A stretch of 61,865 nucleotides of DNA, counting the filler. It is 6 parts of 6 records of this genome, joined end to end, with 100 filler letters (N's around TTAATTAATTAA, not from the genome) between each part and the next. Parts side by side here need not be neighbours in the genome. Positions count along the whole stretch, not along the records: positions 20,901 to 40,791 come from SRR31156797_17397; 5 more parts are not named here. One strand, 5' to 3'. The notes below the pieces were generated by a model. The model was given only the letters and a program-made list of their open reading frames with translations. It was not told the origin of the DNA and searched no databases. A program made the position numbers and the translations under genes. This document shows, piece after piece, positions 24,545 to 43,272 of the stretch. Positions within the stretch are counted from its first letter, which is position 1. The number at the start of each line of letters is the position of its first letter.

Positions 24545-24685
24545 TTAAAATGGGTAAAAAATGTTAGTTAAGTATAGTTAAAAACGCTATATTTAGGTAG
24601 TTTTTCTCACAAAAAACACGTTTTTATAATTGACACTCCCGTAAAAAAAGCGTAAAAAAACAATCAACAGGGTAGAGGAGTAACC

Positions 24686-24730: not shown

Positions 24731-24868
24731 TATCAATACACTATCAAGCAAGGAGCATAGCGCATTGAATCTGAGCTATATATCATATATTTTAGTCGAT
24801 CACCAATACGACTTTCATAGTTCCCTTAATATAACTACCTGCCCACATATTTCAATCGTGGGGGTAGA

Positions 24869-25159: not shown

Positions 25160-25170
25160 GAGATATAACA

Positions 25171-25739: not shown

Positions 25740-28029
25740 TCAAAATCTATCTAAAATGGATACAATGTGTCCGATTGCAGCGTTATGGCCTAAGGATAAT
25801 GTTACCATTACCAGAGGCGGAAAGTTTGCCCGGGTAGTTGAATTGACGGGTAAAGATTATTCTGGGCTGGCCCCTGAGATTATAGATTCGCTTTTTGAAA
25901 CTCGTAAGGGGTTTTTTGAAAGCCTTGATTCCGATATTACTATACTCCAACATAGTCACAGGATGAGGATAGAACGAAACGTAGAAAAAGAGCATTTTTC
26001 TAACGCCATGGCCGGGCAAATATCTAATACCTGGAACAGTCAATTCAAAAAATCATATAGAACCAAGCATTATTTAATTTTCGTAACGGACCCGGATATC
26101 AAAGATCAATTACAATTATTGGTTCGGTCCCGGGATGATGGGGAAACCCGGGACGATGAGCTTTTACGCAAATTAGATGATTGTATAAAAGATATTCTTG
26201 TCCGGCTGGAGAGCTATGGTCCCAGGGAGTTATCCGGGGATGATTTATCCAGCTATTGGGGTTTTTTGATAAACGGCAGGCCTGTGTATCAAAAAGCTCC
26301 TAAAGATGGTTTGTTGGATGGTTTGCTATCCGGTACCGGGGTTCGGTGGCCCAGGAGAGCAAGATATCAAATATATGATGCCGAACAAGAGAGATATTCG
26401 GCCTGGCTGTATATTAAAGCTCCGGCTACAACTACATCTCAAGGGCTTTTAGATCGACTTTTTGAAGTTAAAGAAGATTTTTCGGTTTATCAAACAATGG
26501 CCACGGCATCAAAGCCCGAAGCTATGAGCATTATAGAAGATAAAATGAAAAATGCGACTGTGTTTACTCATGCGCCGGCAATTATTCAATTGGAGTTGCA
26601 GGAACTTGAAGCACGGGTTCAAGCTGATGAATTGAGTATGGTTAACCATAGATGGGCTATTGAAGTCTTTGGCGATACCTTAAAGGACTTGGAAAACAGT
26701 ATCACAATAGTAAAAAATACAATTGAAAATTTTGGATACAGAACCGTTCGAGAACGGATTAATCAAGAAGCTCTTTTTTGGTCCAGGTTTCCGGAATTCC
26801 ATAATTTAAATTGCCGGTCAAGAATACTAACGTCTGAGAATATTGCCCATTTTGCGACATTTGCGACGGTCGGGGAAGGATACGAAAGTTGCTCTTGGGG
26901 GAAGGCACCGGTGTCTGTTTTTAAGACTAAGGCTGAATCAGAATATAGTTTTATTTTTCATGTTAGTCCCGAAAAAGATGTTTTAGGCAATACTCTTGTA
27001 ATTGGCGGTACCGGTTCAGGAAAAACAACATTTATCAGCTTTCTTTTATCGCAATGTTTTAAATATCCAGACTTTAGAATTTTAGCTTTTGACCGTTTAC
27101 GCGGCATGAAAATTTTTACTCGGGTGCATGGCGGTAATTATCAAGATTTTGCCAAGGCGCCCTCTATTAATCCTTTGCAATTAGACGATTCCGTAGAGAA
27201 CAGGGCGTTTTTAACCCAATGGTTTCAGGTTTTAACCGGAAAAACAGATGAACAATCATTAGAAACAATAGACCAGGCCATAATTCAAATGTTCACGTTA
27301 GATCGAAAGGAGAGAACTCTAGAAAATTTGGCTGATGCTTTTATGCTGAAAGAGAAAGGATCCATTCGAAAAGCTTTGGACCGGTGGTTACCTGGCGGAG
27401 CTTTGGGTGATTTTTTTAATGGGAAAAGGGATTCTCTAGATTTTGAAAATCCTCTGGTTGCATTTGATATGTCCACTTTACTGTCTTCGCCGGATATTTT
27501 GGGACCAATGACCTATTATCTTTTTCACAAGCTTTTTTTGACTGCCCGGAAAAAGGGCGGCTATGCTGTTTTTGTGGACGAGCTGGGGAAATACTTAAAT
27601 TCTGAATTATTCGCTCCGAAAATTGAAATGATGTTGGAAGAAATCAGAAAAACCAACGGTATTTTTATCGGTGCTATTCAGGAAGCCGGGTCCGTTCTGG
27701 ATCACAAAATAGCCCCGAAGATAAAAAACAACATAGGTACATATATTCTTTTTCCCGAACCCAGGGCAGAAAGAAATCATTATGTCAAAGAACTTCGATT
27801 AAATGACACCGAATTCAACTGGATAAAAAAGCCTCATCCCCGAGAGGTAATGGTGAAAAGAAAAGACGGTGAAAGTGTTATTTTGAACATAGATTTAAAG
27901 CCGTTAAATAGATATCTGCAAGTTTTTGATTCTAGTTCTGATTCTGTGGATAAAATGGAAAATTTAAGGAGAAAAACCGATGACTGGAAAACCTTGTTTA
28001 TCAATGGCGATCGCCGCAAATACAATTAA
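25723..28029 (+). CDS. virB4: T4SS ATPase VirB4
   Basis: GGTGSGKT Walker A, FDRLRG, INPLQL, FVDE and RKTNG motifs. Confidence 0.93.
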   Translation: MNIFPNQNLSKMDTMCPIAALWPKDNVTITRGGKFARVVELTGKDYSGLAPEIIDSLFETRKGFFESLDSDITILQHSHRMRIERNVEKEHFSNAMAGQISNTWNSQFKKSYRTKHYLIFVTDPDIKDQLQLLVRSRDDGETRDDELLRKLDDCIKDILVRLESYGPRELSGDDLSSYWGFLINGRPVYQKAPKDGLLDGLLSGTGVRWPRRARYQIYDAEQERYSAWLYIKAPATTTSQGLLDRLFEVKEDFSVYQTMATASKPEAMSIIEDKMKNATVFTHAPAIIQLELQELEARVQADELSMVNHRWAIEVFGDTLKDLENSITIVKNTIENFGYRTVRERINQEALFWSRFPEFHNLNCRSRILTSENIAHFATFATVGEGYESCSWGKAPVSVFKTKAESEYSFIFHVSPEKDVLGNTLVIGGTGSGKTTFISFLLSQCFKYPDFRILAFDRLRGMKIFTRVHGGNYQDFAKAPSINPLQLDDSVENRAFLTQWFQVLTGKTDEQSLETIDQAIIQMFTLDRKERTLENLADAFMLKEKGSIRKALDRWLPGGALGDFFNGKRDSLDFENPLVAFDMSTLLSSPDILGPMTYYLFHKLFLTARKKGGYAVFVDELGKYLNSELFAPKIEMMLEEIRKTNGIFIGAIQEAGSVLDHKIAPKIKNNIGTYILFPEPRAERNHYVKELRLNDTEFNWIKKPHPREVMVKRKDGESVILNIDLKPLNRYLQVFDSSSDSVDKMENLRRKTDDWKTLFINGDRRKYN

Positions 28030-28042
28030 GAAAGGATGTTTT

Positions 28043-28633
28043 ATGAAAACAGTATTTAAAATGACCTTAATTATTATTTTTTCATTATCTTTAAGTTCCT
28101 GTCTTCTTCCTGAGAAATTTGAAAGCACCGTTGAAGTTAAGGCAAGCGATGAATACAAAGCAGAATTTTCCGGAACCATGGTGTTTGCTCCTGCTCAAGT
28201 AGAATTGGTAAATGGCGGAAAATTGACACAAAGCTTTGAAGCTGAATTAAAAGAATTCTCAAAGGAAATTCTCAAAGATAAAGTCTTTAAAAGTGCTGAA
28301 TATATAGGAAACGCTAAATACCAAATTACCGCTTCCGATGAGGGTAAATTGATTGAAACAGTTGCTTTCTTACCCGGGGATCTGTGTTTCATTACCATCA
28401 CCCCATTGCCAAATAATCAAGTTGAAATCAAAGGAATAGAATTAGGGCCAAACGACATTAAAGAATTAATTTCCTTGGGAATTAATTTAGACGGCACCTT
28501 TCATTTAAAAACTAAGGGTAAGGTTATAAAAAATAATGCAACGTCTAAGCCTAAATTCGGCATGTTCGGCGGGTATACCTGGAAAATAAAATCCTATGAA
28601 GACCCCTCTATTTACGCATTGATTCAATTTTAA
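28043..28633 (+). CDS. Lipoprotein of unknown function inside the T4SS operon
   Basis: AAGGA RBS, ATG 28043, lipobox LSSC. Confidence 0.75.
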   Translation: MKTVFKMTLIIIFSLSLSSCLLPEKFESTVEVKASDEYKAEFSGTMVFAPAQVELVNGGKLTQSFEAELKEFSKEILKDKVFKSAEYIGNAKYQITASDEGKLIETVAFLPGDLCFITITPLPNNQVEIKGIELGPNDIKELISLGINLDGTFHLKTKGKVIKNNATSKPKFGMFGGYTWKIKSYEDPSIYALIQF

Positions 28634-28642
28634 GGACTATAA

Positions 28643-29506
28643 ATGAGAAAAATATTTTTCTTAACCATCCTTTTGTTGATTCCATCCCAAGCATTTGCCC
28701 TTTTTGGTGCAGGGGATATTGTTTCAGACCCTGGCAGCTATTCGTATTACGTTGAGCAAATCAAGATAGCCACCGAAGAGTTTGAAAATATGCAAAAGCA
28801 GCTTGAGACGGCTCAAAACACCTTGGAAGAAACCCAAAAAATGCGGGGCCTCCTGGAAGGCACTTATAGCCATGCTACGCAGACCATAGCAGACCTTAGA
28901 GATTTTCAAAAAAAATTAAAATCTGAGCCTTCGGCATTGCTGAACTATGCACAAAAATTTCTTAAAACAGAAATCCATGGATCAGAAGGGGAGTGGATAG
29001 ATGCAGAGGATCTTATCAGAGGTGTCTTTATAGATCCTCGTAAGAAGGGCAATGGTAAAAGTATCCCGGATGATGTGGCTGAAATTATGAAGCAGGCCAA
29101 TGATAGATTCCATTTGAGACAAAAGACTTTAGAACAAACCATTCTCAAAGCCGAAGATTTACATAAAAGGATGCCGGAAAAGTATCAAAAAATTGAAGAG
29201 GCCGCCGCAAAAATCAATATTACTGCAAGCGTTAAAGAGGCGATGGATTTAAATAATCAGCTTTTAGCAGAAATATGGAGAGCAATTACCGATTTAACAA
29301 GCTTGACTGGCTATATTGGTGAAGCCCAAGCAATGCTTTATTACCAGGGGGTAAATAATAATACCTCGGTTCAAATGACAGAAAATATAGAAAACGATAA
29401 TGCCCTTATAAAAACCTACAGGCCCAATGACGAATATTTGGATAGGAATAATATCGACACAGATCAGACCTCTGAAAAATTCTTATTACAATTAATTGAA
29501 GACTAA
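28643..29506 (+). CDS. virB5: T4SS minor pilin VirB5/TrbJ-like
   Basis: Signal peptide, GDIVSDP motif, helical Gln/Glu-rich body, upstream of virB6. Confidence 0.75.
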   Translation: MRKIFFLTILLLIPSQAFALFGAGDIVSDPGSYSYYVEQIKIATEEFENMQKQLETAQNTLEETQKMRGLLEGTYSHATQTIADLRDFQKKLKSEPSALLNYAQKFLKTEIHGSEGEWIDAEDLIRGVFIDPRKKGNGKSIPDDVAEIMKQANDRFHLRQKTLEQTILKAEDLHKRMPEKYQKIEEAAAKINITASVKEAMDLNNQLLAEIWRAITDLTSLTGYIGEAQAMLYYQGVNNNTSVQMTENIENDNALIKTYRPNDEYLDRNNIDTDQTSEKFLLQLIED

Positions 29507-29520
29507 AGGTAATACTATTT

Positions 29521-30597
29521 ATGGAACCTTTTTTAAGAAGTTTATTTGCCACATTCATGAATCAGTTGGATTTATATCTTGAAAATATATTTCCCGCTCT
29601 CATGAACTCTTTTGGTAATTTTGGCCGGGCCTTTGTTGTCCTTTATATTATTATTGTTGGTTTTTGCATTATGAAGGGGTGGTCTGGTGAAAAAACAAAA
29701 GAATTTTTAGTAAGCCTCATTCTTTTGCCTGTGGTTTGGGGTTTTATTTTTGAAGGGTCTTCCGTTTACAATTCTTGGATTGTAACACCAATTGTTAAAA
29801 CAACGTTGAATTTATCAAGCTTTTTTATAGGTGGAGTACAAGACTCTAACTTTACTGCTGGCGCAGGTCTTGGTGATTTATTCTCAAATTTAGACTCATT
29901 ATCACACGATATCTTTAATTTATTACTTAAGACTAAACCTTCTGGCAACTTCATGACTAATGCCTGGGTTTATATTCAAGTAGGAGTTTTGGCAACGTTT
30001 CTTTTTGCTGCCTACGTGGCTGTGTGTGGAGTTTTTGTGTTCTTAATAATCATGGGTTTCTTTTCCATGTATGTTTTTTTTATAGTTGGCGGTATCTGTA
30101 TTTTTTTTGTGTCCTTCGCCAAGACTCGACACATTTTTTACGGTTGGCTCAAAGGCATTGCCAACTTTTCATTAATCATAATTTTTACAAGCATCATTAT
30201 GGCAATTTGCTATTCCGGTATGCAAGATTCAATTAATCAGCTTTTAGAATTAAAGGGTGCAAATCGTTTATTTTCACCTCAATATTTAGGGGTAATTTGT
30301 TGGTGTATTTTTACTTTTGGCGTTCTTCTGAAAGGCGCTGATTATGCATCAACCTTAACCGGTGATATGTCCGGTAGTACTGCGGCTATAGCTGCGGGTG
30401 TCGGCAAAGTAGCCGGTATTGCCGGGGCTGTTGCTGGCGGCGGTTTAATGGCCGGTGCCGCAGCCGGAGGGCAGGGTGGGGCAGCCCTTGCCAAAATGGG
30501 AGTCTCTAAAGGTGGTCAAATGGCATCCGGAGGAATTACCCGGGCTTATAGTGCAATGAAAGGTGTAATTAACCAAAAACCAAAGCAAGGAGAGTAA
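29521..30597 (+). CDS. virB6: T4SS inner-membrane protein VirB6
   Basis: Polytopic membrane protein with TRHIFYGWLK motif and Gly/Ala-rich tail. Confidence 0.88.
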   Translation: MEPFLRSLFATFMNQLDLYLENIFPALMNSFGNFGRAFVVLYIIIVGFCIMKGWSGEKTKEFLVSLILLPVVWGFIFEGSSVYNSWIVTPIVKTTLNLSSFFIGGVQDSNFTAGAGLGDLFSNLDSLSHDIFNLLLKTKPSGNFMTNAWVYIQVGVLATFLFAAYVAVCGVFVFLIIMGFFSMYVFFIVGGICIFFVSFAKTRHIFYGWLKGIANFSLIIIFTSIIMAICYSGMQDSINQLLELKGANRLFSPQYLGVICWCIFTFGVLLKGADYASTLTGDMSGSTAAIAAGVGKVAGIAGAVAGGGLMAGAAAGGQGGAALAKMGVSKGGQMASGGITRAYSAMKGVINQKPKQGE

Positions 30598-30599
30598 AA

Positions 30600-30737
30600 A
30601 TGAAAAAATTGATTTTCGCAATGTTTGTAATTTGTCTTTTAAGCGGTTGCTCTATTCTCAACAAGGAACCCGAAAATCCAAATAAACTTAAAAGATCCCC
30701 GTGTGCATGTATGCCATTGGATATTAAACAAGGGTAA
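30600..30737 (+). CDS. virB7: T4SS lipoprotein VirB7-like (45 aa)
   Basis: Not in ORF track. MKKLIFAMFVICLLSGCSILNKEPENPNKLKRSPCACMPLDIKQG; lipobox LSGC; AGGAG RBS; between virB6 and virB8. Confidence 0.8.
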   Translation: MKKLIFAMFVICLLSGCSILNKEPENPNKLKRSPCACMPLDIKQG

Positions 30738-30742
30738 TCGTT

Positions 30743-31426
30743 ATGTCTAAACGAAATGAAAACCCCTCTTTTCCATGGCTCCAGGCCGTAACAAATAATC
30801 GTATTTTGATTTTTGTGGTAATTGTTTTGGGCATTGTATGTCTTGGCCTGGGCCTGGCCCTTGCATTTCTATTCCCTCTGAAGACCATAGAGCCGATTTA
30901 TGTTGAATTCCAGCATAGCACTAATAGCTTTGTGGTTGTTCAGAGGGCAGGGCGTAAGGTCCGGACAAATGATTTGCTTAAATCTATGTTTCTTCGGTCT
31001 TATGTCTCATCCCGGGAAACAGTGGATAAGGTAACGGAAAGAGACCGCTATCAGTTTGTTGTGGCTTTAAGTGGTGATACGGTTGCCAAGACATTCAAAG
31101 AGATTTACGGCAATAAAAAAACCGGCCTGTATTATCAAGAAGGCCGGAAAAGATATGTTCACATCATCAGTGATAACTCCCTGGGAGCGGGGTATCATCA
31201 GATTATGATAGAAACATCGGACGTTGACGAAAAGATAGACAGAGACAAAGACGGCAAGGCCGATGTGAGAAAAACAGAATGGATCATAACCTTAAGATAT
31301 GGTTTTTATGATCAGCAAGTTAATCTTGATCCCCGCAAGGGCGGGGCACACCTCCTGAATCCCATGGGGATCCAGATCGAAGAATATTCAATTAAAAAAT
31401 TGGCAAAGGCAAGCAAGGGAGAATAA
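30743..31426 (+). CDS. virB8: T4SS protein VirB8
   Basis: Single TM followed by LFPLKT, YVSSRE and NPMGIQIEEY motifs. Confidence 0.92.
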   Translation: MSKRNENPSFPWLQAVTNNRILIFVVIVLGIVCLGLGLALAFLFPLKTIEPIYVEFQHSTNSFVVVQRAGRKVRTNDLLKSMFLRSYVSSRETVDKVTERDRYQFVVALSGDTVAKTFKEIYGNKKTGLYYQEGRKRYVHIISDNSLGAGYHQIMIETSDVDEKIDRDKDGKADVRKTEWIITLRYGFYDQQVNLDPRKGGAHLLNPMGIQIEEYSIKKLAKASKGE

Positions 31427-31429
31427 GCA

Positions 31430-32374
31430 TTGAAGTTTATTAAACTCGTACTTTTAACGTTAATCCTCTTGGTGGGCAGCCAGGGGATAGGACTTTGTAA
31501 AGTTGTAGACGAAACCGGGAACGGTCAGGTGGTGGCACCCGACGAGATCCCGAATCGTCCCATGCGGGACGATGCAAATCTAAAAGCAATTCAAACAGCG
31601 TTTGATAATAGTGATCCTCGGGCCAATATCAAACGATTTCCTTATGATCCCGGGATAACGTATAAAATCCGGTTGAGAGAATTCATGGGCTGCACCGTTG
31701 TTCTTCCGGATCAAGAAAAAATAGTGGGGTATACACTATTCGATAAGCACAATTTTACCTTTACCCCTCTAAGCGATAAAAATCCGGTGCTGACCCATAT
31801 TTTTGATTTATACGCGAAATTTCACGGGGCGGATACAAACCTCGTAGTGCATGGAGAATCCGGCAATATATATTCTTTTTATATTCGTGTGGATTCTGTG
31901 GACTCTGTATTTATGCCTAACCTCGTTTACTATATCGATGATCCTGACACGACCCAGGCTTTTATCAAAAAAAAAGAAGCCGCCGCAGAGGCTGAAAAGT
32001 TAGCCGCTGCCCTGGACGCTGAGGAAAAAAACGAAAAACCTAAAAAAGAAGATGCCCAGGGCAACGATTATTTAAAATCCCTTCCAACAAAGGTCGCTGC
32101 AAAGGATTTAAATTTTTCTTACATCTTCAAAGGCGGCAATGAAGATATCAAGCCGCTTCGGGTCTTTGATGATGGATATTTTACTTTTTTTCAGTTTGGC
32201 AAAGACAACATGAACGAAGTGAAAAAATTGCCTGTTATTTATAGAGTTGTGGACGGCTACGACGTTTTGGTGAATACGCGGATTTCAGGTGGTTGTCTTG
32301 TCGCTGAAAGCATTAATGAAAAATGGACATTGCGGAGCGGAGAAACTCATTACTGTATCTGGATGGATAATTGA
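31430..32374 (+). CDS. virB9: T4SS outer-membrane core protein VirB9
   Basis: Signal peptide, TNLVV, NFSY, PLRVFDDGYFTFF and LPVIY motifs. Confidence 0.92.
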   Translation: MKFIKLVLLTLILLVGSQGIGLCKVVDETGNGQVVAPDEIPNRPMRDDANLKAIQTAFDNSDPRANIKRFPYDPGITYKIRLREFMGCTVVLPDQEKIVGYTLFDKHNFTFTPLSDKNPVLTHIFDLYAKFHGADTNLVVHGESGNIYSFYIRVDSVDSVFMPNLVYYIDDPDTTQAFIKKKEAAAEAEKLAAALDAEEKNEKPKKEDAQGNDYLKSLPTKVAAKDLNFSYIFKGGNEDIKPLRVFDDGYFTFFQFGKDNMNEVKKLPVIYRVVDGYDVLVNTRISGGCLVAESINEKWTLRSGETHYCIWMDN

Positions 32375-33489
32375 ATATGTCTGAATCACCAAAAATACCG
32401 AAAAAGATAGACATCAAACGCCCGGGAATGAATTTGAAAAAGGAAGGTTTTTTTTTCCTGGGTTTGATTGTCATTTTAGGGGCGGTGATCGGATTTGCGG
32501 CATGGCAAAAAAAACAAAGAGATCAGGTGGACGATGATAGGGGAAAAATTATCATAGCTGCTGGTATTGATAAAGATTTTCTAATACGAGAAACCCCTCC
32601 TGAGCCTGAGCCGGAGCCAAAACCGGAACCAGAACCGGAACCGGAACCGGTGGCGGAAATTGTAGAAATTAAACTTCCACCCCCTCCGGAGACTAAACAA
32701 GATCCGCCAACCGCTGAACAACTATTTAAATTCCATAAACCAAAAAAAAATAAAACCCGGGTCGCAGCTCTAAATAATCGGCGGCGGGGTGCTGTTGAAA
32801 TCAATGTTAAAAATCCTAAACCCACCAGAGAAAAGTCAGTGGTAAACGAAATAACCGGCAAATGGAACGAATCAAAAACAAAAGCCAGTTTGCCTATTGA
32901 TATGAGCAGGGTTTTAACTGTGGACCGGTTTATCTCGGCAACTTTAGTCCCTGAGATAGATTCGGAATTATCCGGCAAAATAGTTGCTCAAGTAGACCAT
33001 CATATTTTTGGAGCTCATGGTCGGAAAATTTTAATTCCTGCGGGAACAAAAGCCATAGGCCGGTATAAACCCTTATCAAAAGTGGGTTTAGAACGATTAG
33101 CCGTCACATGGATTAGAATGATTACCCCTGATGGTATTAATATCCATTGTGAGGATGCCGAAATGGCCGACGCCATGGGCCGGTCCGGGATCACTGGTGA
33201 AGTTGACAGTAAATATTGGGAACGCTACGGCATGAGCCTTTTGGTATCAGCTTTTACAGCCGTAACCAGTTACAGCGTGCCTGTTAAAAACGATAGTCAA
33301 CAAGTTGTTATCGAAAGTTTTGGTAAGGAACAAAGCAGCCTGGCCAAAACCATTCTTGAAGAACACTTACAAATCAAACCGCAAGTTACAATCCCATATG
33401 GTTCAAAAATCATAATCAGTCCATCAAAAGATATCTGGTTCAAAACACTCAAAGATAACCAAATGGTTGTTATGCCTGTGGAGGGATAA
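32371..33489 (+). CDS. virB10: T4SS core protein VirB10
   Basis: TM, (PE)n linker, IDSELSG, LIPAGTKAIG and DAMGRSG motifs. Confidence 0.93.
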   Translation: MNMSESPKIPKKIDIKRPGMNLKKEGFFFLGLIVILGAVIGFAAWQKKQRDQVDDDRGKIIIAAGIDKDFLIRETPPEPEPEPKPEPEPEPEPVAEIVEIKLPPPPETKQDPPTAEQLFKFHKPKKNKTRVAALNNRRRGAVEINVKNPKPTREKSVVNEITGKWNESKTKASLPIDMSRVLTVDRFISATLVPEIDSELSGKIVAQVDHHIFGAHGRKILIPAGTKAIGRYKPLSKVGLERLAVTWIRMITPDGINIHCEDAEMADAMGRSGITGEVDSKYWERYGMSLLVSAFTAVTSYSVPVKNDSQQVVIESFGKEQSSLAKTILEEHLQIKPQVTIPYGSKIIISPSKDIWFKTLKDNQMVVMPVEG

Positions 33490-33490
33490 A

Positions 33491-35671
33491 ATGAATCAAA
33501 GAAAATTAAACTCACTTTATAAAGCTCTGGCAATTTCAATTTGCATCTTTTCAATATTTTTTCTTGTTGTTCCTTTCGGCCTGGCCGTAAATGATTCGGA
33601 TGAAATTTCCGACGCTGACGGCAAGATTATAAAACTTAATTTGATCAGCGAAATTAAAGAAAAAGTTTCAACCGATGCCGGAAGTATGTTTGTAGATCTT
33701 ACCCCTGAAGCTGTTAAGATCGGTCTTCCAGATGCCCGTTTATATGGATCGGTAAAGCAAGAACAATTAGTAGACCAATCTACCAGAATGTATATCAATT
33801 GGCACAGCCTTGGAATTCCCACAAGCCAGGGGGAACCGTTGATTGACACACTGGACAACCCTTTAAGGTCCCAGGTTCGGACAGAAGACGAGAAAATTAA
33901 TGTCGGGGAAATTATAACGGCTCAAGGTGATTTGGACGCTCTTATAGAAAAATTTTTAGAACTCAAAGAGCAAGCAGAAAAAAAATCTCCTACAACGGTT
34001 ATTGAAGAAGAGGAAGAAGACGAGAACGATAAAAACAGTTTATCAGCAGATGGGACAGGATCATCCAGCGGGGCCGGTGGTGATTATGATACGGGTTTGG
34101 ACTCTGCATCCGATTTCAGCACCAACATGGTTACCTCATCTTGGGAGGATTGCGAACCCAGGATTGCCCAGGATGAGGGGAAAGTATACCGCCAGGCTCG
34201 CCAGGTTGAAACCGATGAAGAAGGAAACACCGTATCAATTGGGCAATGTACTGACCATGGGGGGTCTGTCGAAGTTTTGAAAGCTTACGGTTCCCCTTGC
34301 GATGTTATTTATGATTATACGAACGGGAAAGCATATGAACAATATCATGAATGGGCTGAATTAGACGGGCGGACCGTTGCTGTAACCAACTGTTCCAACG
34401 ACTTTACACGGTCTTATGACATTTACGGTAAAAAAAATGCGTGCGGCGTAAGACATGACTTTGAAGCTGGCCGGTCCATTGTTCAGGAACAGCTTTTTTA
34501 TATGAATAATGATGGTGAAGAAATTCAAATCACCGAATGCATTGATTCTGATAAAGCATATGCCCATTATCTTACCGAAGCCACTTGCAGCCCATATATT
34601 GATCAGGTTAACAACACGGTCACAATTTATAAAAGAACAGCTTATACCCTGGATGACGGAACGATAGAGTATGCGTCCGATTGCCGGGCTGTGGACGGTG
34701 GTACTAGAGAGCTTTTTGAATCTTACTGCGACCAGAAATACGAGCATGATTTTACAGCAGGGCAAAGCTATTACAGGACAAAAGATTACTATCTTAATGA
34801 TAATAATGATCCCGTATATCTGACTGAGTGTACACGCAGCACAACGACATCATTTCCCCATATATATAATGCTTCGGGGTGCGAAACTGTCAACGATGAT
34901 GAAAATTTAAGAAGTGTTCAATATACGTCCACGTCCATTGAAACCCCGGATGATGGGATAATGGAAATATCGCCTTGCCAGGATAACGGAACAACTATTC
35001 CGTACACCTATATGGGCATTGAAAACAGATCTGCCGTTTTCACAAGTTCGGGAACCTGGACGGTTCCGAATACCGTTAAAAAGATTACTGTAACCCTTGT
35101 TGCCGGTGGTGGAAAAGGGGGAAATGGTGGGCCTTGGTCTTATAACTCATCCCAAGATGGTTATGGAAAAAATGGCGGGGATGGTGCTGGTGACTTTGGC
35201 GGTGGTGGTGGCGGCGGTGCTGGTGGTGAAATTCTTGAAAATAAAAGCGTAACAGTAAGCCCAGGAAGTAATATTACCGTTACAATTGGGTCATCAAACC
35301 AGAATTCTACATTTGGCAGCTATTTAACCGCAAGAATGGGATACGGTTCAAGTGGGTCTAATGGAACAGAGGGTAGTAGTATTCGTGGCGGGAATGGCGG
35401 TAGAGGTGGCGCTGGATATGGAACCCTCAAATTAGCCAAAGACGGCGGAGACGCATGTGGTAGTACATGCTCAGCTGATACAGGAGGAACCGCCGGAATT
35501 GGATACGGGGCAGGCGGCGGTGGTGGTGCCGGTGCCAGTTCACCGTCATTTATTTATTATAACAGAGGTGCAGGCGGTAACGGTGCTCCTGGGTATTGTA
35601 AAGTTACCTGGACAGTTAATGTCTATAAAAGGGCAGACGGCACCTTATATGAAGGCCAAGTACAATGGTAA
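33491..35671 (+). CDS. Secreted modular protein: six ~48-aa two-Cys repeats plus C-terminal glycine-rich tail-fibre-like domain (putative T4SS adhesin)
   Basis: Likely start ATG 33491; signal peptide; repeats at 34142-35015; FTSSGTWTVP...VAGGGKGG...GGNGAPGYCKVTW at 35033-35611. Confidence 0.75.
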   Translation: MNQRKLNSLYKALAISICIFSIFFLVVPFGLAVNDSDEISDADGKIIKLNLISEIKEKVSTDAGSMFVDLTPEAVKIGLPDARLYGSVKQEQLVDQSTRMYINWHSLGIPTSQGEPLIDTLDNPLRSQVRTEDEKINVGEIITAQGDLDALIEKFLELKEQAEKKSPTTVIEEEEEDENDKNSLSADGTGSSSGAGGDYDTGLDSASDFSTNMVTSSWEDCEPRIAQDEGKVYRQARQVETDEEGNTVSIGQCTDHGGSVEVLKAYGSPCDVIYDYTNGKAYEQYHEWAELDGRTVAVTNCSNDFTRSYDIYGKKNACGVRHDFEAGRSIVQEQLFYMNNDGEEIQITECIDSDKAYAHYLTEATCSPYIDQVNNTVTIYKRTAYTLDDGTIEYASDCRAVDGGTRELFESYCDQKYEHDFTAGQSYYRTKDYYLNDNNDPVYLTECTRSTTTSFPHIYNASGCETVNDDENLRSVQYTSTSIETPDDGIMEISPCQDNGTTIPYTYMGIENRSAVFTSSGTWTVPNTVKKITVTLVAGGGKGGNGGPWSYNSSQDGYGKNGGDGAGDFGGGGGGGAGGEILENKSVTVSPGSNITVTIGSSNQNSTFGSYLTARMGYGSSGSNGTEGSSIRGGNGGRGGAGYGTLKLAKDGGDACGSTCSADTGGTAGIGYGAGGGGGAGASSPSFIYYNRGAGGNGAPGYCKVTWTVNVYKRADGTLYEGQVQW

Positions 35672-35675
35672 TGAT

Positions 35676-36572
35676 ATGAGCGTACTATTAAAACAGCATC
35701 TAAAACCCCTTGAAAAGTATTTCCGGATAAAGAACGTGGTCGAGTTATGCATTAATGAGCCTGGCCGGATCTGGATAGAAACCCTGGACGGATGGCAGGA
35801 AAAAAAAGATTCTGCCTTAAGTTTGCAATCATTGGAATATATGGTTACTGCCCTGGCCACAGCCAAAGGGCAAAAGTTCAGCGAAAAGACCCCGTTTCTT
35901 GCAACGGCGATACCTGATCTTGGTTATAGAATTCAGGCCGTTGGCAGCGGCTTGGCTGACTCCGGAATAACAATCTCTATCCGGATTGCCCAGGCCCAAA
36001 GGTTTAAGCTGGAATCCTATATGCCCAAAACCGATGCCCAGGAATTAAAAGCGGCCATCAAGACCGGTAAAACGGTCTTGGTAGCCGGTGGCACATCCTC
36101 TGGTAAAACCACGCTTTTAAACTCTGCTATTCAATATATCCCTGAATCCGCCCGGCTGGTGGTGATTGAAGATACAAAAGAATTGGTTGTAGACCAACCC
36201 AATACCGTCCGGTGGTTGAAGTCAAAAACAGGGACAGACATAGCAAGAATTACTTATCCGGATATCATAAATTCGGCCATGAGGGTGCGGCCTGATCGCA
36301 TCCTCATGGGGGAATTAGATATTCAAAACACCGCCCCTTTCCTGCGGCTGCTTAACGCTGGTCATGCGGGATCGATGGCAACGGTTCACGCCAACGGCAC
36401 GAAAGAGGCAATTGACGCTCTTGTTATGAACGCCCAATTATCCGGGATGCAAGGTGGCCCGGATCTGGTCACACAATATGCCACCAAAGCCTTAGACATA
36501 ATTATATATATCGAACGGCAAAACAGACGAAGTTTCAAAGCCATTGCAGAATATTTGGAGGATGCAGCATGA
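35676..36572 (+). CDS. virB11: T4SS traffic ATPase VirB11
   Basis: ELCINEPG, GGTSSGKTT, IEDTKEL, RPDRILMGE and GHAGSMATVHAN motifs; start moved to ATG 35676. Confidence 0.93.
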   Translation: MSVLLKQHLKPLEKYFRIKNVVELCINEPGRIWIETLDGWQEKKDSALSLQSLEYMVTALATAKGQKFSEKTPFLATAIPDLGYRIQAVGSGLADSGITISIRIAQAQRFKLESYMPKTDAQELKAAIKTGKTVLVAGGTSSGKTTLLNSAIQYIPESARLVVIEDTKELVVDQPNTVRWLKSKTGTDIARITYPDIINSAMRVRPDRILMGELDIQNTAPFLRLLNAGHAGSMATVHANGTKEAIDALVMNAQLSGMQGGPDLVTQYATKALDIIIYIERQNRRSFKAIAEYLEDAA

Positions 36573-38548
36573 AGCAAGCTCTATGTCATCTTATAGACCT
36601 TTCAACAATACTTGTTTTTTATCTAATTTTTTGGGCTGCGGTTATCTTTTTTGGTGGGTATCATTTGTCTTGGGATAATCTCTATATAGGTGCCCCGTTT
36701 ATTGCCATAAAAGAGTTGCCATTCCCATATCCCAATTGGTTTAAATACTCTTTTTTGGCCGCTTTGAGCTTGGCCGTTCTTATTCCTTTATTTAATCCGT
36801 TTCGGTCAAAATCAGGTAAATATGGCAGTGCCCATTTTGCCACGGAAAAAGAAATAAAAAAAATGAATCTGCGGGATGATCAAGGAATAATCCTTGCGGT
36901 TAAAGGCAAAAAGTATATCCGGACAAATGAACCCTTGTCCGTAAATATTTATGCGCCTCCTGGAACCGGTAAAACCGCCTCTATTATTATTCCCACATTA
37001 ATATCATGCTCAAATTCAATGATTGTTCATGATCCTAAAGGGGAATTATACGCCAAAACCCATAAGCGCCGGTCGGAGTTCTCAAGAATTGTTAAATTCT
37101 CCCCAGGGGAACGGGGATCTCTACGGTGGAATCCTTTATCCAAAGAAGAATTGCCAAGGGAATGGGCAGATATCCAGGTCCACGTTGACCGGGTCTCACA
37201 AACTGTTATTCCAGACAACCCGAAAAACCCCGGGGATCATTGGCCCAGGGCAGGCCGTAATTTTTTCATGTTTTGGGCTCTGTTTCTAATTCACAGGGAC
37301 GGAGAAACTTCTCTTCCTGACATATTAAAAGAACCCTACCAAACAGATGATATGAGGAATCATATAGCCGAAATTATAGACGAATACGGGGATAATCTTC
37401 CTGAACGTGTTCTTTTTGAGGGGAACGGTCTGTTGCAGACAGCTGAGGCAGAGTTCGGCAGCATACAAAGCACATTTAAAACGAATTTAAGCGTATTTTT
37501 TGACGAGCGTGTGGATCAAAACCTGTCCGGCAGCGATTTTGCCCTGAAGGATCTGAGGACAGAACGAACAACTATTTATCTGACCGTAAAAAACAATGAT
37601 CAATCCAGGCTTAAAAGCCTTTTGGGTCTGTTTTTTGAAACCTGTACAAATGCAATGCTTGACCATGAACCCACCAAAGACGAATACAGGGTAACAGCCC
37701 TTATCGATGAGGCGGCCCGGATTGCTAAAATGCAAGAATTGATAAACATGCCAGCTATCGGGCGGTCCTATAAATTTAATGCTATTTTTGTTTGGCAGTC
37801 CCCTGGCCAGGTAATGAAAATTTATGGGAAAGAGGACACCAAAGAACTGCTAAACACCTGCGCCTATCACGTTTATTTCACACAGAATGATCCTGAATTT
37901 GCAGAGCAAATATCAAAATCAATCGGGGATCTGACCCGGGATAAAATCAGTGAAGGCGAAAACAAGGGATTCCGCCGCAGTAAAAATATATCCAAAGAGG
38001 GGTATAAACTTATGACGGCTCAAGACGTTATGAGTATGCCTGTGGGTAAAATCCTGGTCATGATGCAGTATCATTTTAAAACGCCTATCCTGACGGATGC
38101 GTCTTTTTGGTTTAAAGATCCTGCATTAAAAGCCCACGTCGAAGATGTTGACTATAAAGATCTTTCCGAAGAACCGTCCCAAACCTTGAATGAAGCCCCC
38201 AAGGCAACCATTTCACCTGTTCCGGTCCTGGCTGCTGATCCGGATCCGGGAGGGCAGGGTGGTGAACCCCATGAGGAAGACCAGGACCAGGCAGATGAAG
38301 AAACCGAAATAGTTTTAAGCGTGTCTGATTTTGTTGGTGAAGATCCAGACACGGATATTACAGAAGAAGAGTCAATTATTGACTCTGACGAAGAACCCGA
38401 GTTTTCCGAAGACATGGACTTGGATGATCTCATGGAATGGAAGGAACCGGAAGAAAACGAATTCTCTCCGGAACCTGATTTTTCTATGGATGATGTCATG
38501 TCTAATTTTGACGAAGACGAAGACGAAGACGAATGCCCCCGGCCATAG
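36569..38548 (+). CDS. virD4: Type IV coupling protein VirD4/TraG with acidic C-terminal tail
   Basis: N-terminal TMs, YGSAHFA, APPGTGKT, HDPKGE, WNPL and LIDE motifs. Confidence 0.93.
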   Translation: MKQALCHLIDLSTILVFYLIFWAAVIFFGGYHLSWDNLYIGAPFIAIKELPFPYPNWFKYSFLAALSLAVLIPLFNPFRSKSGKYGSAHFATEKEIKKMNLRDDQGIILAVKGKKYIRTNEPLSVNIYAPPGTGKTASIIIPTLISCSNSMIVHDPKGELYAKTHKRRSEFSRIVKFSPGERGSLRWNPLSKEELPREWADIQVHVDRVSQTVIPDNPKNPGDHWPRAGRNFFMFWALFLIHRDGETSLPDILKEPYQTDDMRNHIAEIIDEYGDNLPERVLFEGNGLLQTAEAEFGSIQSTFKTNLSVFFDERVDQNLSGSDFALKDLRTERTTIYLTVKNNDQSRLKSLLGLFFETCTNAMLDHEPTKDEYRVTALIDEAARIAKMQELINMPAIGRSYKFNAIFVWQSPGQVMKIYGKEDTKELLNTCAYHVYFTQNDPEFAEQISKSIGDLTRDKISEGENKGFRRSKNISKEGYKLMTAQDVMSMPVGKILVMMQYHFKTPILTDASFWFKDPALKAHVEDVDYKDLSEEPSQTLNEAPKATISPVPVLAADPDPGGQGGEPHEEDQDQADEETEIVLSVSDFVGEDPDTDITEEESIIDSDEEPEFSEDMDLDDLMEWKEPEENEFSPEPDFSMDDVMSNFDEDEDEDECPRP

Positions 38549-38591
38549 CTGGGAAAAAATATTAATTTTTCATCCTGGGCAGAGGATAAAG

Positions 38592-38888
38592 ATGAAATCA
38601 GAAGCAAGGACAAAAGTACGTGAAGTTTATCGCAAAGGAGCTTTAATTCTAAAGCTCTGTTTCAACGAAAAATTTAGGCTGCATAACACTACCGGCCCGG
38701 CGTTTACCCGTTATAAAAAAAATGGTCAACCGGACTGTGAACAATATCTTGTTAACGGTCGGCGGCATCGGGAGGATGGACCGGCTGTCATTCGATATAA
38801 GCCCGACGGAAAAATATCATATGCCGAAAATTGGCTAAACGGAGACTTTTACGGATCAACAGATTTAGAGAAAAAGGAGATTGGGTAA
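38592..38888 (+). CDS. Small beta-hairpin repeat protein (HREDGPA / MORN-like)
   Basis: GAGGA RBS, ATG 38592; two repeats LHNTTGPA and RHREDGPA. Confidence 0.7.
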   Translation: MKSEARTKVREVYRKGALILKLCFNEKFRLHNTTGPAFTRYKKNGQPDCEQYLVNGRRHREDGPAVIRYKPDGKISYAENWLNGDFYGSTDLEKKEIG

Positions 38889-38889
38889 T

Positions 38890-40791
38890 ATGAAAGTTGT
38901 ATTAGCTGAAAAACCGAGCCAGGGTAGGGACTATGCCAAAGTTTTAGGCTGCACCGAAAAACATAATGGATATATTACTGGCAACGGCTATACCGTTACA
39001 TGGGCTATTGGCCACCTGGTTTCAATGGATCGCCCCCAGGAGATGGGCCAGGCTAAAAATATGTCTGATCTTCCTGTAATAAAAGAAACGCCCGGATTCC
39101 GGGTTGTTGAAGATAAAAAGAGTCAATTTTCAGTTATTGAAAGCCTTTTTAATGATCCGGACACCGAAGAAATTATATGCGGGACCGATGCAGGAAGGGA
39201 AGGCGAACATATTTTCAGGCTGATCTATGATCAAGCCGGATGCACAAAGCCTGTAAAAAGGCTTTGGATATCAAGTTTGACACCAGCAGCACTTAAAAAA
39301 GGCTTTGACGCTTTGCGCCCGGGAGATGATTATAAAAACCTGGCCGCTGCCGCCATGTGCCGGGCTAAAGCTGATATGCACGTGGGCCTAAATTTTTCTA
39401 TTGCCCACAGCATCCATAACCGGCAAAAAGTTACCACCGGCAGGGTCCAGACTCCCACCTTGGCGATTGTGGCTCAAAGGGAACTGGATATTAAAAATTT
39501 TAAATCTAATTTTTATTATGAAATTTTGGCCGATCTGGACGGTTTCAAAGCAAAATATGTGAATTCCGAAGGAAAACACGCCATAGAAGATAAAGCTGCG
39601 GCCCAGACTATTTTTGACGGCATTAAAAATGCTAAAATCGCCACGGTAATAAAGAGAGAAGGAAAAACAAAATCCCAAAAAGCCCCGGCCCTGTATAGCC
39701 TGTTGACGCTTCAAGTGGATGCTAATAAATTGTTTGGGCTAACCGCAGACCAAACCCTAAAAATTGCCCAATCCCTTTACGAGTCCCGTAAATTAATTTC
39801 TTATCCCAGGACAGAAAGCAACCATTTGAGTACGGATATGGTGGATGGTCTTCCGGATATCATAAAAAATCTTCCGGATCTTTGCGGAAACTCTGTTGAT
39901 ACTGCTTTAGACCGGCTTAACGATGGTCTTTCCCTGGGTAAAGGATATGTTGACGATACCAAACTTACCGACCATCATGCAATTATACCCACCGGGGAAG
40001 CTGCTACCATTGACGACTTATCCATGGATGAAAGAAATCTTTATCTTTTGGTGTGTGAAAGGTTTTTGTCCATTTTCTTGCCGGAGTGTGTCTCTGAAAT
40101 TACCAAAGTTGACTTAAGTATTGAAGATCAAATTTTCAGGACATCAGGGTCAATCATAACCGATCCCGGGTGGAGGAGTGCTTTAATCATTAATAAAGCC
40201 AAAACAGAAAAAACGGAAACACTCCCGGACCTGGAAGAAAACCAGGCCATAGACATTAAAAAAATTGACTTAGATAAGAAAAAAACAAAGCCCCCGGCCC
40301 GGTTTAATGATGCCTCTTTGCTTAAAGCAATGAAAGCAGCCGGTAAAATGGTGGATGATAAAGACCTGGCCTCATACATGAAAGAAAATGGAATAGGAAC
40401 GTCAGCGACAAGAGGCGGTATCATTGAAAAGCTTATGGCAATAGGATACCTGGCCAGGGAAAAAAAGGCCATTATTCCAACGGATAAAGGATTACAACGT
40501 TTTCTTTCCGAACTTCCTGAATTGAAAAGCCCAAAATTAACCGGGGAATGGGAGCAAAAATTAAAACTCATTGAATCAGGAGAGTATGACCCGGATAAGT
40601 TTGACCAGGAGATAGAATCCTTTATCAAAAAACTGATTCCTCAGGTGGAGAAAACCAAAAAGATTGAACGTGCCTCCTTCGGCACCTGCCCCGTTTGCGG
40701 CAAAGGAGAGATTATCGACGGCGGTAAAGGGTTTGGCTGCTCAGAATATAATAACGGCTGTAAATTCGTAATTTGGAAGAACATCGCCGGT
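38890..40791 (+). CDS. topB: DNA topoisomerase III, plasmid type, 3' truncated
   Basis: AEKPS, TWAIGHL, DAGREGE, GRVQTPT and ISYPRT motifs, plus CPVCG zinc ribbon. Confidence 0.93.
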
Positions 40792-40891
40792 NNNNNNNNN
40801 NNNNNNNNNNNNNNNNNNNNNNNNNNNNNNNNNNNTTAATTAATTAANNNNNNNNNNNNNNNNNNNNNNNNNNNNNNNNNNNNNNNNNNNN
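40792..40891. other. Artificial contig spacer
   Basis: N44-TTAATTAATTAA-N44. Confidence 0.98.
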
Positions 40892-40952
40892 GTTGGTAAA
40901 TTTTAAAAGTTCCATGGCCCTAATACAGGTAATTACATACAAGGAGGAAGCC

Positions 40953-41402
40953 ATGAATGTTGGGGAAGTTTGCAATCGCGAAGTGATTATTATCGACAGG
41001 GAAGGTTCCATCCGTGAAGCAGCCGGACTCATGCGAGAATACCACGTCGGTAATGTCGTAGTTGTCGAAGAGAAGAACGAAGAACGTTTTCCGGTCGGCA
41101 TTCTGACCGACAGAGACATCGTGCTTGAATTAATTGCTCTTGATGTCGACATAAACGCCGTCACGGTTGGCGATGCCATGAGTTTCGAATTAATAACCGC
41201 CAGGGAAGAAGACGACGTTATGGAGACAATCAAGCGAATGCGCCACAAAGGAGTGCGTCGTATACCGGTTGTAAACAATCGCGGCGGTCTGGAAGGCATA
41301 CTTGCGGTGGATGACCTTATAGATCTACTCTCCGAACAATTGACGGACCTTGCAAGACTGGTCATGGGGGAACAGCAGCGGGAAAGCGAAAAACGCCTGT
41401 GA
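40953..41402 (+). CDS. CBS-domain pair protein
   Basis: AAGGAGG RBS, ATG 40953; PVGILTDRDIV and VRRIPVV motifs. Confidence 0.92.
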   Translation: MNVGEVCNREVIIIDREGSIREAAGLMREYHVGNVVVVEEKNEERFPVGILTDRDIVLELIALDVDINAVTVGDAMSFELITAREEDDVMETIKRMRHKGVRRIPVVNNRGGLEGILAVDDLIDLLSEQLTDLARLVMGEQQRESEKRL

Positions 41403-41461
41403 CACTTAGTGCATAACGGCATAAATGACAATCTCTATCAAAAAGGGGCTTCCGACAGAAC

Positions 41462-41489
41462 TTGACGGTGTATCATAATCTAATATAAT
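41462..41489 (+). promoter_or_regulatory. Near-consensus sigma70 promoter in the element left end
   Basis: TTGACG-16 nt-TATAAT upstream of tnpB. Confidence 0.65.
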
Positions 41490-41522
41490 CTATCCTTTAA
41501 TTAAAATAGGGGTAGCAGCAAA

Positions 41523-42656
41523 ATGTTGAAGGTCCACAAAATTAAACTTGATCCAAATGTAGATCAAAAAAAGTATTTTGCAAAGGCCTGCGGAGTCGCT
41601 CGCGTAGCCTATAATTGGGCTCTGTTCGAGTGGGAAAAGCAATACAAAGATGGTGAAAAGCCTTCTGAGATGGCTTTGAGAAAAAAGCTCAATTCTATCA
41701 AAAAAACAGAGTTTCCTTGGATGACGGAGGTCACCAAAAATGCCCCACAACAAGCCATTAAAAATCTTGGAACAGCTTACACCAATGCATTCCGTAGGAT
41801 GAAACAAGGAGAGAAAACCGGGTCTGAAAAAAATCCATATGGGTTTCCAAGACCTAAGCGAAAATTCATAAATGACAGTTTTCGTGCAGATAATGGACCA
41901 CAAAAAAAAGGCGCTGATACCGTTCCCATCAAGGGGAAAAAAATTAAACTCCCCAAGATTGGATGGGTGAGGATGAGAGAGTCTCTCCGCTTCACTGGTC
42001 AGATCAAATCCGTCACAATTTCACGACAAGCGGATAAGTGGTTTGCAGCAATATCGATTGAAACCGAAGACATTTCCCATCAACGAAAGGCTGAAAAGTC
42101 TTGTGGTATTGACTTGGGAGTAAAACATCTTGCGACTCTTTCCGACGGCACTAAGATCGAAGGAGCAAAGTCTCTGGAGGCTTTGTTGAAAAAGAAAAAA
42201 CGACTCCAACGAGAATTGTGTCGCCGCAAGAAAGGTTCCGAAAATCGGAGCAAGACAAAATTGAAGCTTGCAAAACGTGAGGCTCAAATCAGCAATGCTC
42301 GAAATGATGCTCACCACAAAGCTACTACAGAAATTGTGCTTAATAACCATACCATCGCAATGGAAGATCTCAATGTGAAAGGCATGGTAAAAAATCATAA
42401 GTTGGCAAGGCGGTTGACCGACCAGGCTTTTGGAGAATTTAAGCGTCAGATTGAATACAAAGCTGATTGGTATGGAAGCAGAGTTACCCAGGTGGATAGA
42501 TTCTTTCCATCAAGTAAAACATGTAATGCCTGCGGATACATAAAAGAAGATCTCAAGTTATCGGATCGGATATTTGTTTGTCCAGTATGCGACTACAAAG
42601 AAGATAGAGATGTGAATGCCGCCAAAAATATCAAAGATAATGCGGTGGCAGCATAA
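41523..42656 (+). CDS. tnpB: RNA-guided endonuclease TnpB
   Basis: N-terminal HTH (ARVAYNWAL), RuvC-I GIDLG, RuvC-II MEDLNV, PSSKTCNACG..CPVC zinc finger, RuvC-III DRDVNAAKNI; catalytic D/E/D intact. Confidence 0.95.
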   Translation: MLKVHKIKLDPNVDQKKYFAKACGVARVAYNWALFEWEKQYKDGEKPSEMALRKKLNSIKKTEFPWMTEVTKNAPQQAIKNLGTAYTNAFRRMKQGEKTGSEKNPYGFPRPKRKFINDSFRADNGPQKKGADTVPIKGKKIKLPKIGWVRMRESLRFTGQIKSVTISRQADKWFAAISIETEDISHQRKAEKSCGIDLGVKHLATLSDGTKIEGAKSLEALLKKKKRLQRELCRRKKGSENRSKTKLKLAKREAQISNARNDAHHKATTEIVLNNHTIAMEDLNVKGMVKNHKLARRLTDQAFGEFKRQIEYKADWYGSRVTQVDRFFPSSKTCNACGYIKEDLKLSDRIFVCPVCDYKEDRDVNAAKNIKDNAVAA

Positions 42657-42819
42657 ACGATATGTACCGTGAGTCCCATGGGATCTTAAGCCTGTGGAGA
42701 ACGTAGCTCTGGCTGGAAGATTCTTTCCAGTGAAACTACCTCTATGAAGCAGGAAGAAAAGGATAGATAATGTTGATTATCTTAGATTTTTCAGGACGGA
42801 TATAATGCCGACCGAATCT
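42640..42819 (+). ncRNA. Putative TnpB omega/reRNA scaffold plus ~20-nt guide
   Basis: Structured non-coding DNA 3' of tnpB: TACCGTGAG..GCCTGTGGAG, GTAG..CTGGAA-gattct-TTCCAG..CTAC stem, TGAAGCAGGAA; boundaries approximate. Confidence 0.65.
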
Positions 42820-43254: not shown

Positions 43255-43272
43255 TTATAAGGAAGGCCTAAG

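Follow-up and report, generated by a model that had tools for sequence, protein, structure and literature searches.

How does a VirB-type conjugation machine recognise and hold its recipient? To our knowledge this is poorly understood for minimal systems of the type, dedicated specificity factors having been described chiefly in F-type (TraN) and I-type (PilV) plasmids. The question is raised here by a gene, called P0001, that sits between virB10 and virB11 of a type IV secretion system (T4SS) locus in the window, by which we mean the whole stretch of DNA analysed (61,865 nucleotides, including the filler between its six joined parts). Its product combines a predicted VirB10-like domain, a cysteine-rich repeat stalk, and a tip of the kind carried by phage fibres. 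We lean, without great assurance, towards reading it as an adhesin docked on the outer-membrane core of the T4SS, with a swappable tip for recipient recognition in the manner of TraN; its exposure at the surface and its function are the parts that we infer.

It is worth starting with the company that the gene keeps. The preliminary description, made from the sequence, had P0001 tightly coupled to both neighbours, and both gaps are indeed found: the TAA stop of virB10 (33487-33489) is separated by 1 nt from the P0001 ATG at 33491, which has a Shine-Dalgarno site (GGAGG) 8 nt 5' of it, and the TAA stop of P0001 (35669-35671) lies 4 nt before the virB11 ATG at 35676. The open reading frame (ORF) runs through 726 codons with no internal stop, and every motif quoted in that description is present in the 726-residue translation. 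It had also named, beforehand, linkage of the homologues to T4SS loci as a point on which it could be refuted, and here the linkage proved complete. A tblastn search of plasmids returned 17 records with a P0001 homologue; in 10 of these, together with the single locus that a contig search returned, in a metagenome-assembled genome (MAG), 11/11 homologues have a TrbI/VirB10 gene immediately upstream and a VirB11-type ATPase downstream. These loci are found in Nitrosospira pNRS527-2, Desulfovibrio ferrophilus pDFE, an Aliarcobacter butzleri plasmid (with an extra 64-aa ORF ahead of virB11), Paracaedimonas (by Pfam), Magnetospirillum pMSR-1, Roseibium, Azospirillum, Magnetospira, Thalassospira lucentensis, Thalassospira marina (where the locus spans the start of the circular record), and a Gallionella MAG (by Pfam). 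Their hosts range over Beta-, Alpha-, and Epsilonproteobacteria/Campylobacterota and Desulfovibrionia, and in every record the homologue is annotated as “hypothetical protein.”

P0001 is one of a large family of T4SS-linked proteins that has no name. Eighteen homologues came from a word-indexed search, seven of them full-length with 48-60% identity, including a “hypothetical protein” of Desulfospira joergensenii. A profile built from 16 members and searched against 1.84 billion cluster representatives then matched 492 of them at E<=0.001, 420 at <=1e-10, and 271 at <=1e-30, with lengths spanning 312-2143 aa. Existing family databases say little about these proteins. P0001 matches 0 Pfam families at E<=0.01, hence neither PF03743 nor a TraN family, and its NCBIfam scan gave a single irrelevant match (E 0.025); 53 of the 54 family members scanned are likewise without Pfam. 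Similarly, PDB sequence searches with the profile of the family alignment (A1) and with the tip alone gave nothing below E 0.4.

Alignment A1 opens with a hydrophobic N-terminus and a conserved domain (about residues 45-165). An acidic/Gly-Ser segment of low conservation separates these from the stalk, with its 12 cysteines, and a variable region makes up the end. The first 33 residues probably form a Sec signal peptide, to judge from their basic and hydrophobic composition and the G-L-A that precedes V33; residues 3-25 are helical in the AlphaFold2 model, a hydrophobic N-terminus is present in 150 of the 160 family members that start with M, and inspection of the P0001 N-terminus shows no lipobox Cys. 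The model built on A1 has a mean predicted local distance difference test score (pLDDT) of 77.3 and a predicted template modelling score (pTM) of 0.36, the latter because the orientations between domains are undefined. Its pLDDT is about 85 over residues 45-165, 29-34 over the linker at 166-212 (which shows 21-62% identity among relatives), about 90 over residues 213-520, and 41-92 in the tip. A Foldseek search of the PDB with the full model returned beta-propeller-type rows only (TM 0.04-0.07), which we took as repeat noise, and an ESM Atlas search with residues 40-505 gave no usable match.

The first conserved domain is where modelling goes beyond the preliminary description, which had seen just a domain of about 130 residues; the predicted VirB10 fold is a feature additional to it. 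Fold searches with VIA-align were run against 48,161 PDB representatives. With the full model, ranks 3-9 were all T4SS outer-membrane-core entries, matched on residues 43-174 with Z 7.1-8.9. Residues 40-170, refolded with a 47-row alignment, reached pLDDT 93.2 and pTM 0.85, and the top seven chains were then of VirB10 type, with 103-116 of 131 residues aligned and Z 6.8-8.7: 7okn_A (8.7), 3jqo_A (8.5), 6gyb_c (8.2), 6odi_b (CagY, 8.1), 7o3j_A (7.9), 2bhv_A (ComB10, 7.2), and 8cb2_DDD (6.8). The next, unrelated chain scored Z 4.1. CagY and ComB10 are identified by entry title; in the multi-protein entries we take the matched chain to be the VirB10-type subunit, going by residue numbering and subunit lengths, and 8cb2_DDD may be either CagX or CagY. 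In a Foldseek search with the same domain, 11 of the first 14 rows were T4SS core entries, the VirB10-type ones with probabilities of 0.82-1.00.

We read these matches as a real resemblance of the modelled domain to the C-terminal domain of VirB10, in a shortened form: about 120 aa, against the roughly 190 of VirB10 C-terminal domains, or some 70 aa fewer. P0001 also appears to lack VirB10's N-terminal inner-membrane anchor and its Pro-rich region, no Pro-rich stretch being visible in the sequence. The VirB10/TrbI relatives include TraF of pKM101, TrwE of R388, ComB10, CagY, and TraB of F, and the C-terminal domain of VirB10 lines the outer-membrane core complex. P0001 shares this VirB10/TrbI fold and directly follows virB10; common descent, for example through partial duplication of the adjacent gene, is possible.

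The stalk is conserved across the family. The six tandem two-Cys repeats first noticed by eye align in register, with two invariant cysteines each and 13-24% pairwise identity to the first repeat, and the idea that they form a beta stalk is borne out by a model that is all-beta in this region at a pLDDT of about 90. The Cys pairs fall at residues 221/253, 270/301, 318/350, 366/398, 413/447, and 464/496, spaced 31-34 residues apart within each pair, and 12/12 stalk cysteines are invariant across 16 family members. Because the spacing is fixed and the cysteines invariant, each repeat probably carries one disulfide, formed in the periplasm. One repeat (residues 212-262) weakly resembles SasG E-G5 and other G5 domains in VIA-align (Z 3.4-4.5). 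Domain hidden Markov models (HMMs) from A1 were applied to 163 proteins, a set made up of P0001, its 18 word-search relatives, and the best 150 of the 492 profile matches, with overlaps; the stalk model matched in 163/163, that of the N-domain in 133, and that of the Gly-rich tip in 36. Five giant members (P0049, P0052, P0055, P0059, and P0128) are 1935-2143 aa long, with up to 72 Cys and 9-11 stalk-HMM matches. Stalk length is highly polymorphic, as it is in repeat-based surface fibrils.

Such constancy bears on the suggestion that P0001 is a mere passenger, its ORF decaying or without function, or else that it is a secreted substrate with no part in mating contact. We give this almost no credence: that no relaxase was found in the window would accord with it, but the intact frame with its Shine-Dalgarno site, the 12 invariant cysteines and conserved N-domain kept across phyla, and the fixed gene position at 11/11 loci would not.

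What, then, does the stalk carry? The preliminary description had likened the C-terminal domain to phage tail fibres, and solved phage fibre tips, glycine-rich models in BFVD, and tail families in PHROG all match it. The best VIA-align match is the fibre protein gp24 of cyanophage Pam3 (7ypx_A; Z 14.1, root-mean-square deviation 2.9 Å), on which residues 510-724 of the P0001 model superpose with 159 residues aligned at 28% identity. The second is the tail tip of mycobacteriophage Bxb1 (9d93_Pa, Z 10.7), and the glycine-rich domain of ALK scores Z 4.4-5.5. The modelled tip is a TNF-like beta-sandwich with stacked Gly-rich loops, superposable on solved fibre tips, although parts of the model fall below pLDDT 60. 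Foldseek against BFVD gave 173 tip matches at E<=1e-3, mostly to proteins labelled “glycine-rich domain-containing,” tail-fibre, or minor-tail. At the profile level, phrog_863 (category tail) matches residues 514-721 at 2.9e-7, the close relative P0003 matches phrog_6202 at 8.1e-12, and the best PHROG match among Gly-tip members is to phrog_2295, of unknown function, at 4.5e-17, all of these scores being possibly inflated by glycine-rich composition. PHROG matches occur in 6/7 Gly-tip members versus 0/50 members without such a tip; three of the matching members hit the tail families phrog_6202 or phrog_863, and two hit other families.

The comparison with Pam3 is instructive. In gp24, a TNF-like domain and a glycine-rich domain occupy the matched residue range; in the latter, 12 Gly-rich motifs form a lattice of four layers, the stem being conserved and the distal end hypervariable. 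Its authors propose without proof that this part is the receptor-recognising end, and liken it to S16 gp38 (PMC9608196). The Gly-rich tips of the P0001 family show a like pattern, in which the Gly motifs are conserved and the stretches that separate them vary and carry indels (compare PMC9608196). Beyond the shared fold, phage Gly-rich fibre tips and these tips have in common an opening strand motif followed by GGGG runs. The label of polyglycine-II sandwich would rest on the likeness to Pam3 gp24, the Gly loops being modelled with moderate confidence; S16 gp38 (6F45), the classic polyglycine-II adhesin, was absent among the 50 VIA-align matches listed for the full model. Fold and profile both place the P0001 tip with the phage-fibre type, without a close phage relative, and any transfer may have gone in either direction.

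This tip is also replaceable. Among the 163 proteins, 157 C-terminal modules (at least 60 residues past the last stalk match) were sorted by BLAST into 52 clusters. The Gly-rich cluster numbers 37 modules and two others number 30 and 24, and 39 clusters hold a single module each. As BLAST divides them, the Gly-rich tip is one of at least 52 unrelated modules on a conserved stalk. For close relatives, identity to P0001 is 55-79% over the N-domain, 55-75% over the stalk, and 48-54% over the tip; for distant ones it is 42-44% over the stalk and 12-20% over the tip. Together, identities and clusters uphold the earlier expectation of a variable tip on a conserved stalk, and the many alternative tips of a large family are something that the preliminary description had missed. 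On a midpoint-rooted FastTree tree of the last stalk unit (113 leaves, the other 50 proteins matching less than 80% of the model), the presence of the Gly-rich tip takes 6 parsimony changes, versus a shuffled mean of 23.8 (minimum 18), and therefore the tip seems to be mostly inherited, with several switches. One element outlasts these exchanges: a Y-x-R-x-D tail (Y712, R714, and D716 in P0001), invariant in A1 and found within the last 60 residues of 98/163 proteins, behind otherwise unrelated tips. Its role may be that of a closing strand under conservation, or of a site of contact. In 46 of those 98 proteins Gly stands in the middle, giving “RGD.”

Here two other explanations must be weighed. 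In one, P0001 is a periplasmic structural part whose VirB10-like domain joins or caps the core, with the stalk as a spacer or strut to peptidoglycan or the inner-membrane complex and the tip binding the donor's own envelope. Sec export with periplasmic disulfides, the lack of an outer-membrane targeting feature, the VirB10-fold N-domain, and the strict position among core genes at 11/11 loci would all suit it. An internal strut, however, would hardly be expected to carry 52 unrelated C-terminal modules or a phage receptor-recognition module; a stalk that ranges from one repeat set to proteins of 2143 aa with 72 Cys is a poor fit to a periplasm of fixed width, and VirB2-B11 are complete without P0001. 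We hold this explanation to be unlikely, and a purely internal structural role is disfavoured most strongly because the distal parts are diverse and variable in length. The other makes P0001 a self/non-self recognition or surface-exclusion factor, whose tip would sense cells already carrying the element and so avoid redundant matings. Such a factor might well show tips that are highly diverse and that go with the element, not with the host, but a fibre of 726 aa would be an unusual design for it, nothing in P0001 resembles the known exclusion proteins (which are small lipoproteins or inner-membrane proteins), and no partner gene is evident. We regard it as highly improbable.

Returning to the docked adhesin that we prefer, its working can be sketched as follows. 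The protein would be exported by Sec and acquire its disulfides in the periplasm, and its N-domain would dock on the outer-membrane core beside VirB9/VirB10. The disordered tether of about 47 aa and the rigid six-repeat stalk would hold the tip away from the donor, where it would bind a surface structure on recipient cells; mating pairs would thereby be formed or stabilised and the choice of recipients biased. Across the family, the tip would serve as a swappable cassette on the conserved stalk. The architecture, the fold matches, the strict placement between virB10 and virB11, and the diversity of tips are what the analysis shows; docking, arrival at the surface, binding to a receptor, and an influence on the rate or range of transfer are steps that we infer. 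A variant places P0001 on the pilus, as a minor subunit at the tip or side, carried outward as the pilus grows and making first contact with the recipient. The adhesin-type features serve this equally well, the long flexible tether after the N-domain would suit it, and passage through the channel would explain arrival at the surface without an outer-membrane signal. Yet a weak candidate for VirB5, the usual pilus-tip protein, is already encoded at the locus (21.1 bits, under the 24.7 Pfam cut-off), a folded, disulfide-bonded stalk would be hard to send through the channel, and the fold of the N-domain is one found in a core-complex subunit rather than in a pilin or VirB5. We judge the pilus variant very unlikely.

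It is important to set out what weighs against the docked adhesin. The route to the surface is its weakest link: P0001 shows neither a lipobox nor a recognisable outer-membrane barrel, and it carries no surface-export signal of a known kind. The likeness to VirB10 is of fold only, and Z values of 8-9 are near the level possible for a common arrangement: the Foldseek search with the N-domain had no match at E<=0.001 (the best, 8cb2, at E 4.1e-3 with probability 1.00), BLASTP of the N-domain against the neighbouring VirB10 found nothing, and an hhalign comparison of A1 with nine aligned VirB10 sequences returned a probability of 0.3% (E 0.19). For the tip, PF21722 (Gly_rich_2) scored 9.9 bits (E 0.93) on the C-terminal 222 aa, against a cut-off of 24.3 and with the relative P0014 at 21.8 bits; tblastn against 50,697 phage records gave no match; and segments of the tip model stand at pLDDT 41-66. 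Pam3 gp24 is a trimer that requires a chaperone (PMC9608196). The P0001 tip, unlike gp24, is fused to a T4SS protein, with no N-terminal helical trimerisation shaft or other trimerising helix evident and no gp25-like chaperone gene downstream. Finally, no relaxase or integrase was recognised among the window ORFs scanned, and the element that carries this copy may be unable to transfer itself.

Conjugation adhesins as a kind are already known (TraN, PilV, VirB5/Pep), and three known systems are worth comparing with P0001. TraN, the outer-membrane mating-pair stabilisation protein of F-like, IncA/C, and IncH plasmids, seems the closest analogue: both genes belong to conjugation operons, and both products are exported, Cys-rich, and mostly beta, with a conserved body and a variable tip. 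In the F-plasmid protein, 22 conserved cysteines and a beta-rich body support a variable beta-sandwich tip that binds OmpK36, OmpW, OmpA, or OmpF of the recipient and so sets the species specificity of conjugation (PMC9246713). The resemblance is functional and architectural, with no sequence relation. P0001 belongs to a VirB-type (MPF_T) rather than an F-type system, has a body of tandem repeats, a VirB10-like N-domain, and a phage-fibre-type tip, and its function would be assigned by analogy. CagY of the Helicobacter pylori Cag T4SS likewise joins a VirB10-fold domain (the 6odi_b match above) to long tandem repeats with regularly spaced cysteines. CagY, however, is itself the VirB10 of the Cag system, and its repeats precede the VirB10 domain. 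P0001 has the opposite domain order, is present in addition to a VirB10, and bears a fibre-type tip at its end. Lastly, the G5-E repeat rods of SasG and Aap in Gram-positive bacteria offer another elongated beta-repeat stalk (one repeat, Z 3.7-4.5); their score is weak, their sequences are unrelated, and P0001 differs in its expected disulfides. The likeness is one of analogy alone.

No description of such a gene between virB10 and virB11 was found in the literature searched, which mostly excluded subscription journals, so an earlier mention is possible. A 2025 review of T4SS nomenclature (PMC12857230) nowhere uses the terms “cysteine,” “tail fiber,” or “mating pair stabilization,” and in its available passages no such subunit is described. 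The P0001 family, its VirB10-like anchor, and its phage-fibre-type cassette appear to be undescribed. We would go one step further only tentatively, with some doubt: a widespread clade of VirB machines may possess an unrecognised twelfth subunit, a “conjugative tail fibre,” with a VirB10-paralogous anchor, a disulfide stalk of evolvable length, and interchangeable tips, some of them shared with phages. If that were true, the plasmids and integrative and conjugative elements (ICEs) of the clade would pick recipients by a phage-like, modular logic of host choice. A machine-linked family with swappable tips would supply a concrete determinant of recipient range; with 271 representatives at E<=1e-30 in several phyla, it would cover many environmental plasmids and ICEs. 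It would also exemplify one type of receptor-binding module serving phages and conjugative elements alike, and the VirB10-like anchor suggests how accessory proteins may be grafted onto a core complex.

The remaining genes of the locus are listed with the parts of P0001 in the table. Pfam matches to VirB2, B3, B4, B6, B8, B9, B10, B11, and VirD4 identify it as VirB/D4-type (MPF_T). An ORF of 45 aa between virB6 and virB8, with the lipobox L-S-G-C, is probably the VirB7 lipoprotein. The VirB2-B11/D4 set is complete without P0001, and therefore the gene is a true extra. The related plasmid loci of Aliarcobacter butzleri, Magnetospirillum pMSR-1, and Roseibium also have small ORFs at the VirB7-like position. 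The interval from virB4 to virB6 in the Aliarcobacter butzleri plasmid (3226-4415 of that record, whose gene table is incomplete) has no annotated gene, and a P0001 homologue is present; that the homologue may replace VirB5 there is a question raised, as a lead only. A scan for promoters and terminators over 24000-41500 gave chance-level counts (44 vs 41.8 and 24 vs 17.9, respectively).

Table. Features of the T4SS locus, of P0001, and of the surrounding sequence (positions in the window).
Feature	Positions	Strand	Size or residues	Basis or assignment
P0001, accessory T4SS protein gene	33491-35671	+	726 aa plus stop	Translation
P0001, N-terminal basic and hydrophobic segment	33491-33589	+	Residues 1-33	Read from sequence
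P0001, N-domain	33623-33985	+	Residues 45-165	Predicted VirB10 C-terminal-domain fold
P0001, acidic, Gly/Ser-rich linker	33986-34126	+	Residues 166-212	Predicted disordered
P0001, stalk of six ~48-aa beta repeats	34127-35005	+	Residues 213-505	
P0001, TNF-like/glycine-rich module	35006-35668	+	Residues 506-726	Phage-fibre type
virB2, B3, B4, unassigned ORF, weak VirB5-like ORF, B6, VirB7-like lipoprotein ORF, B8, B9	25111-32374	+		
Weak VirB5-like ORF	28643-29506	+		Pfam, below cut-off
VirB7-like lipoprotein ORF (probable VirB7)	30600-30737	+	45 aa	Lipobox
virB10	32371-33489	+		Pfam TrbI 1.2e-39; domain complete, 2-188 of 188
virB11-type ATPase	35676-36572	+		Pfam T2SSE/VirB11-type 2.1e-26; start set at ATG 35676
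virD4 coupling protein, small ORF, type IA topoisomerase	36569-40839	+		Pfam
V/A-type ATPase operon	7880-13963	-		
IS605-family TnpB and RNA-repair cluster	41523-45804	+		
NRPS-like protein	48606-52964	-	1452 aa	

The surroundings suggest what sort of element carries the locus. No tRNA gene was found in the window, nor was a relaxase of the pDFE type. G+C content steps up to 41-48% over about 8-48 kb (with a dip to 31-40% at about 20-30 kb), versus 26-30% in the flanks at 1-8000 and 48000-61865. The higher-G+C segment holds the T4SS, topoisomerase, RepA-like, and ParA/ParB genes, the V/A-type ATPase operon, an IS605-family TnpB, and an RtcB/RtcA/archease cluster; it is plasmid-like, and may be an integrated or mis-joined plasmid or ICE. 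It is unusual for a conjugative element to carry a V/A-type ATPase operon; the one found here (subunits I, D, B, and A plus DUF2764) adjoins a bactofilin gene and parAB. Just 3' of the transfer genes stands the TnpB gene (OrfB_IS605 with a Cas12f-like TNB domain), followed by the RNA-repair genes in the order archease, RtcB, RtcA. In the low-G+C flank, a protein resembling nonribosomal peptide synthetases (NRPS) comprises a single module with condensation, adenylation, carrier, and terminal reductase domains.

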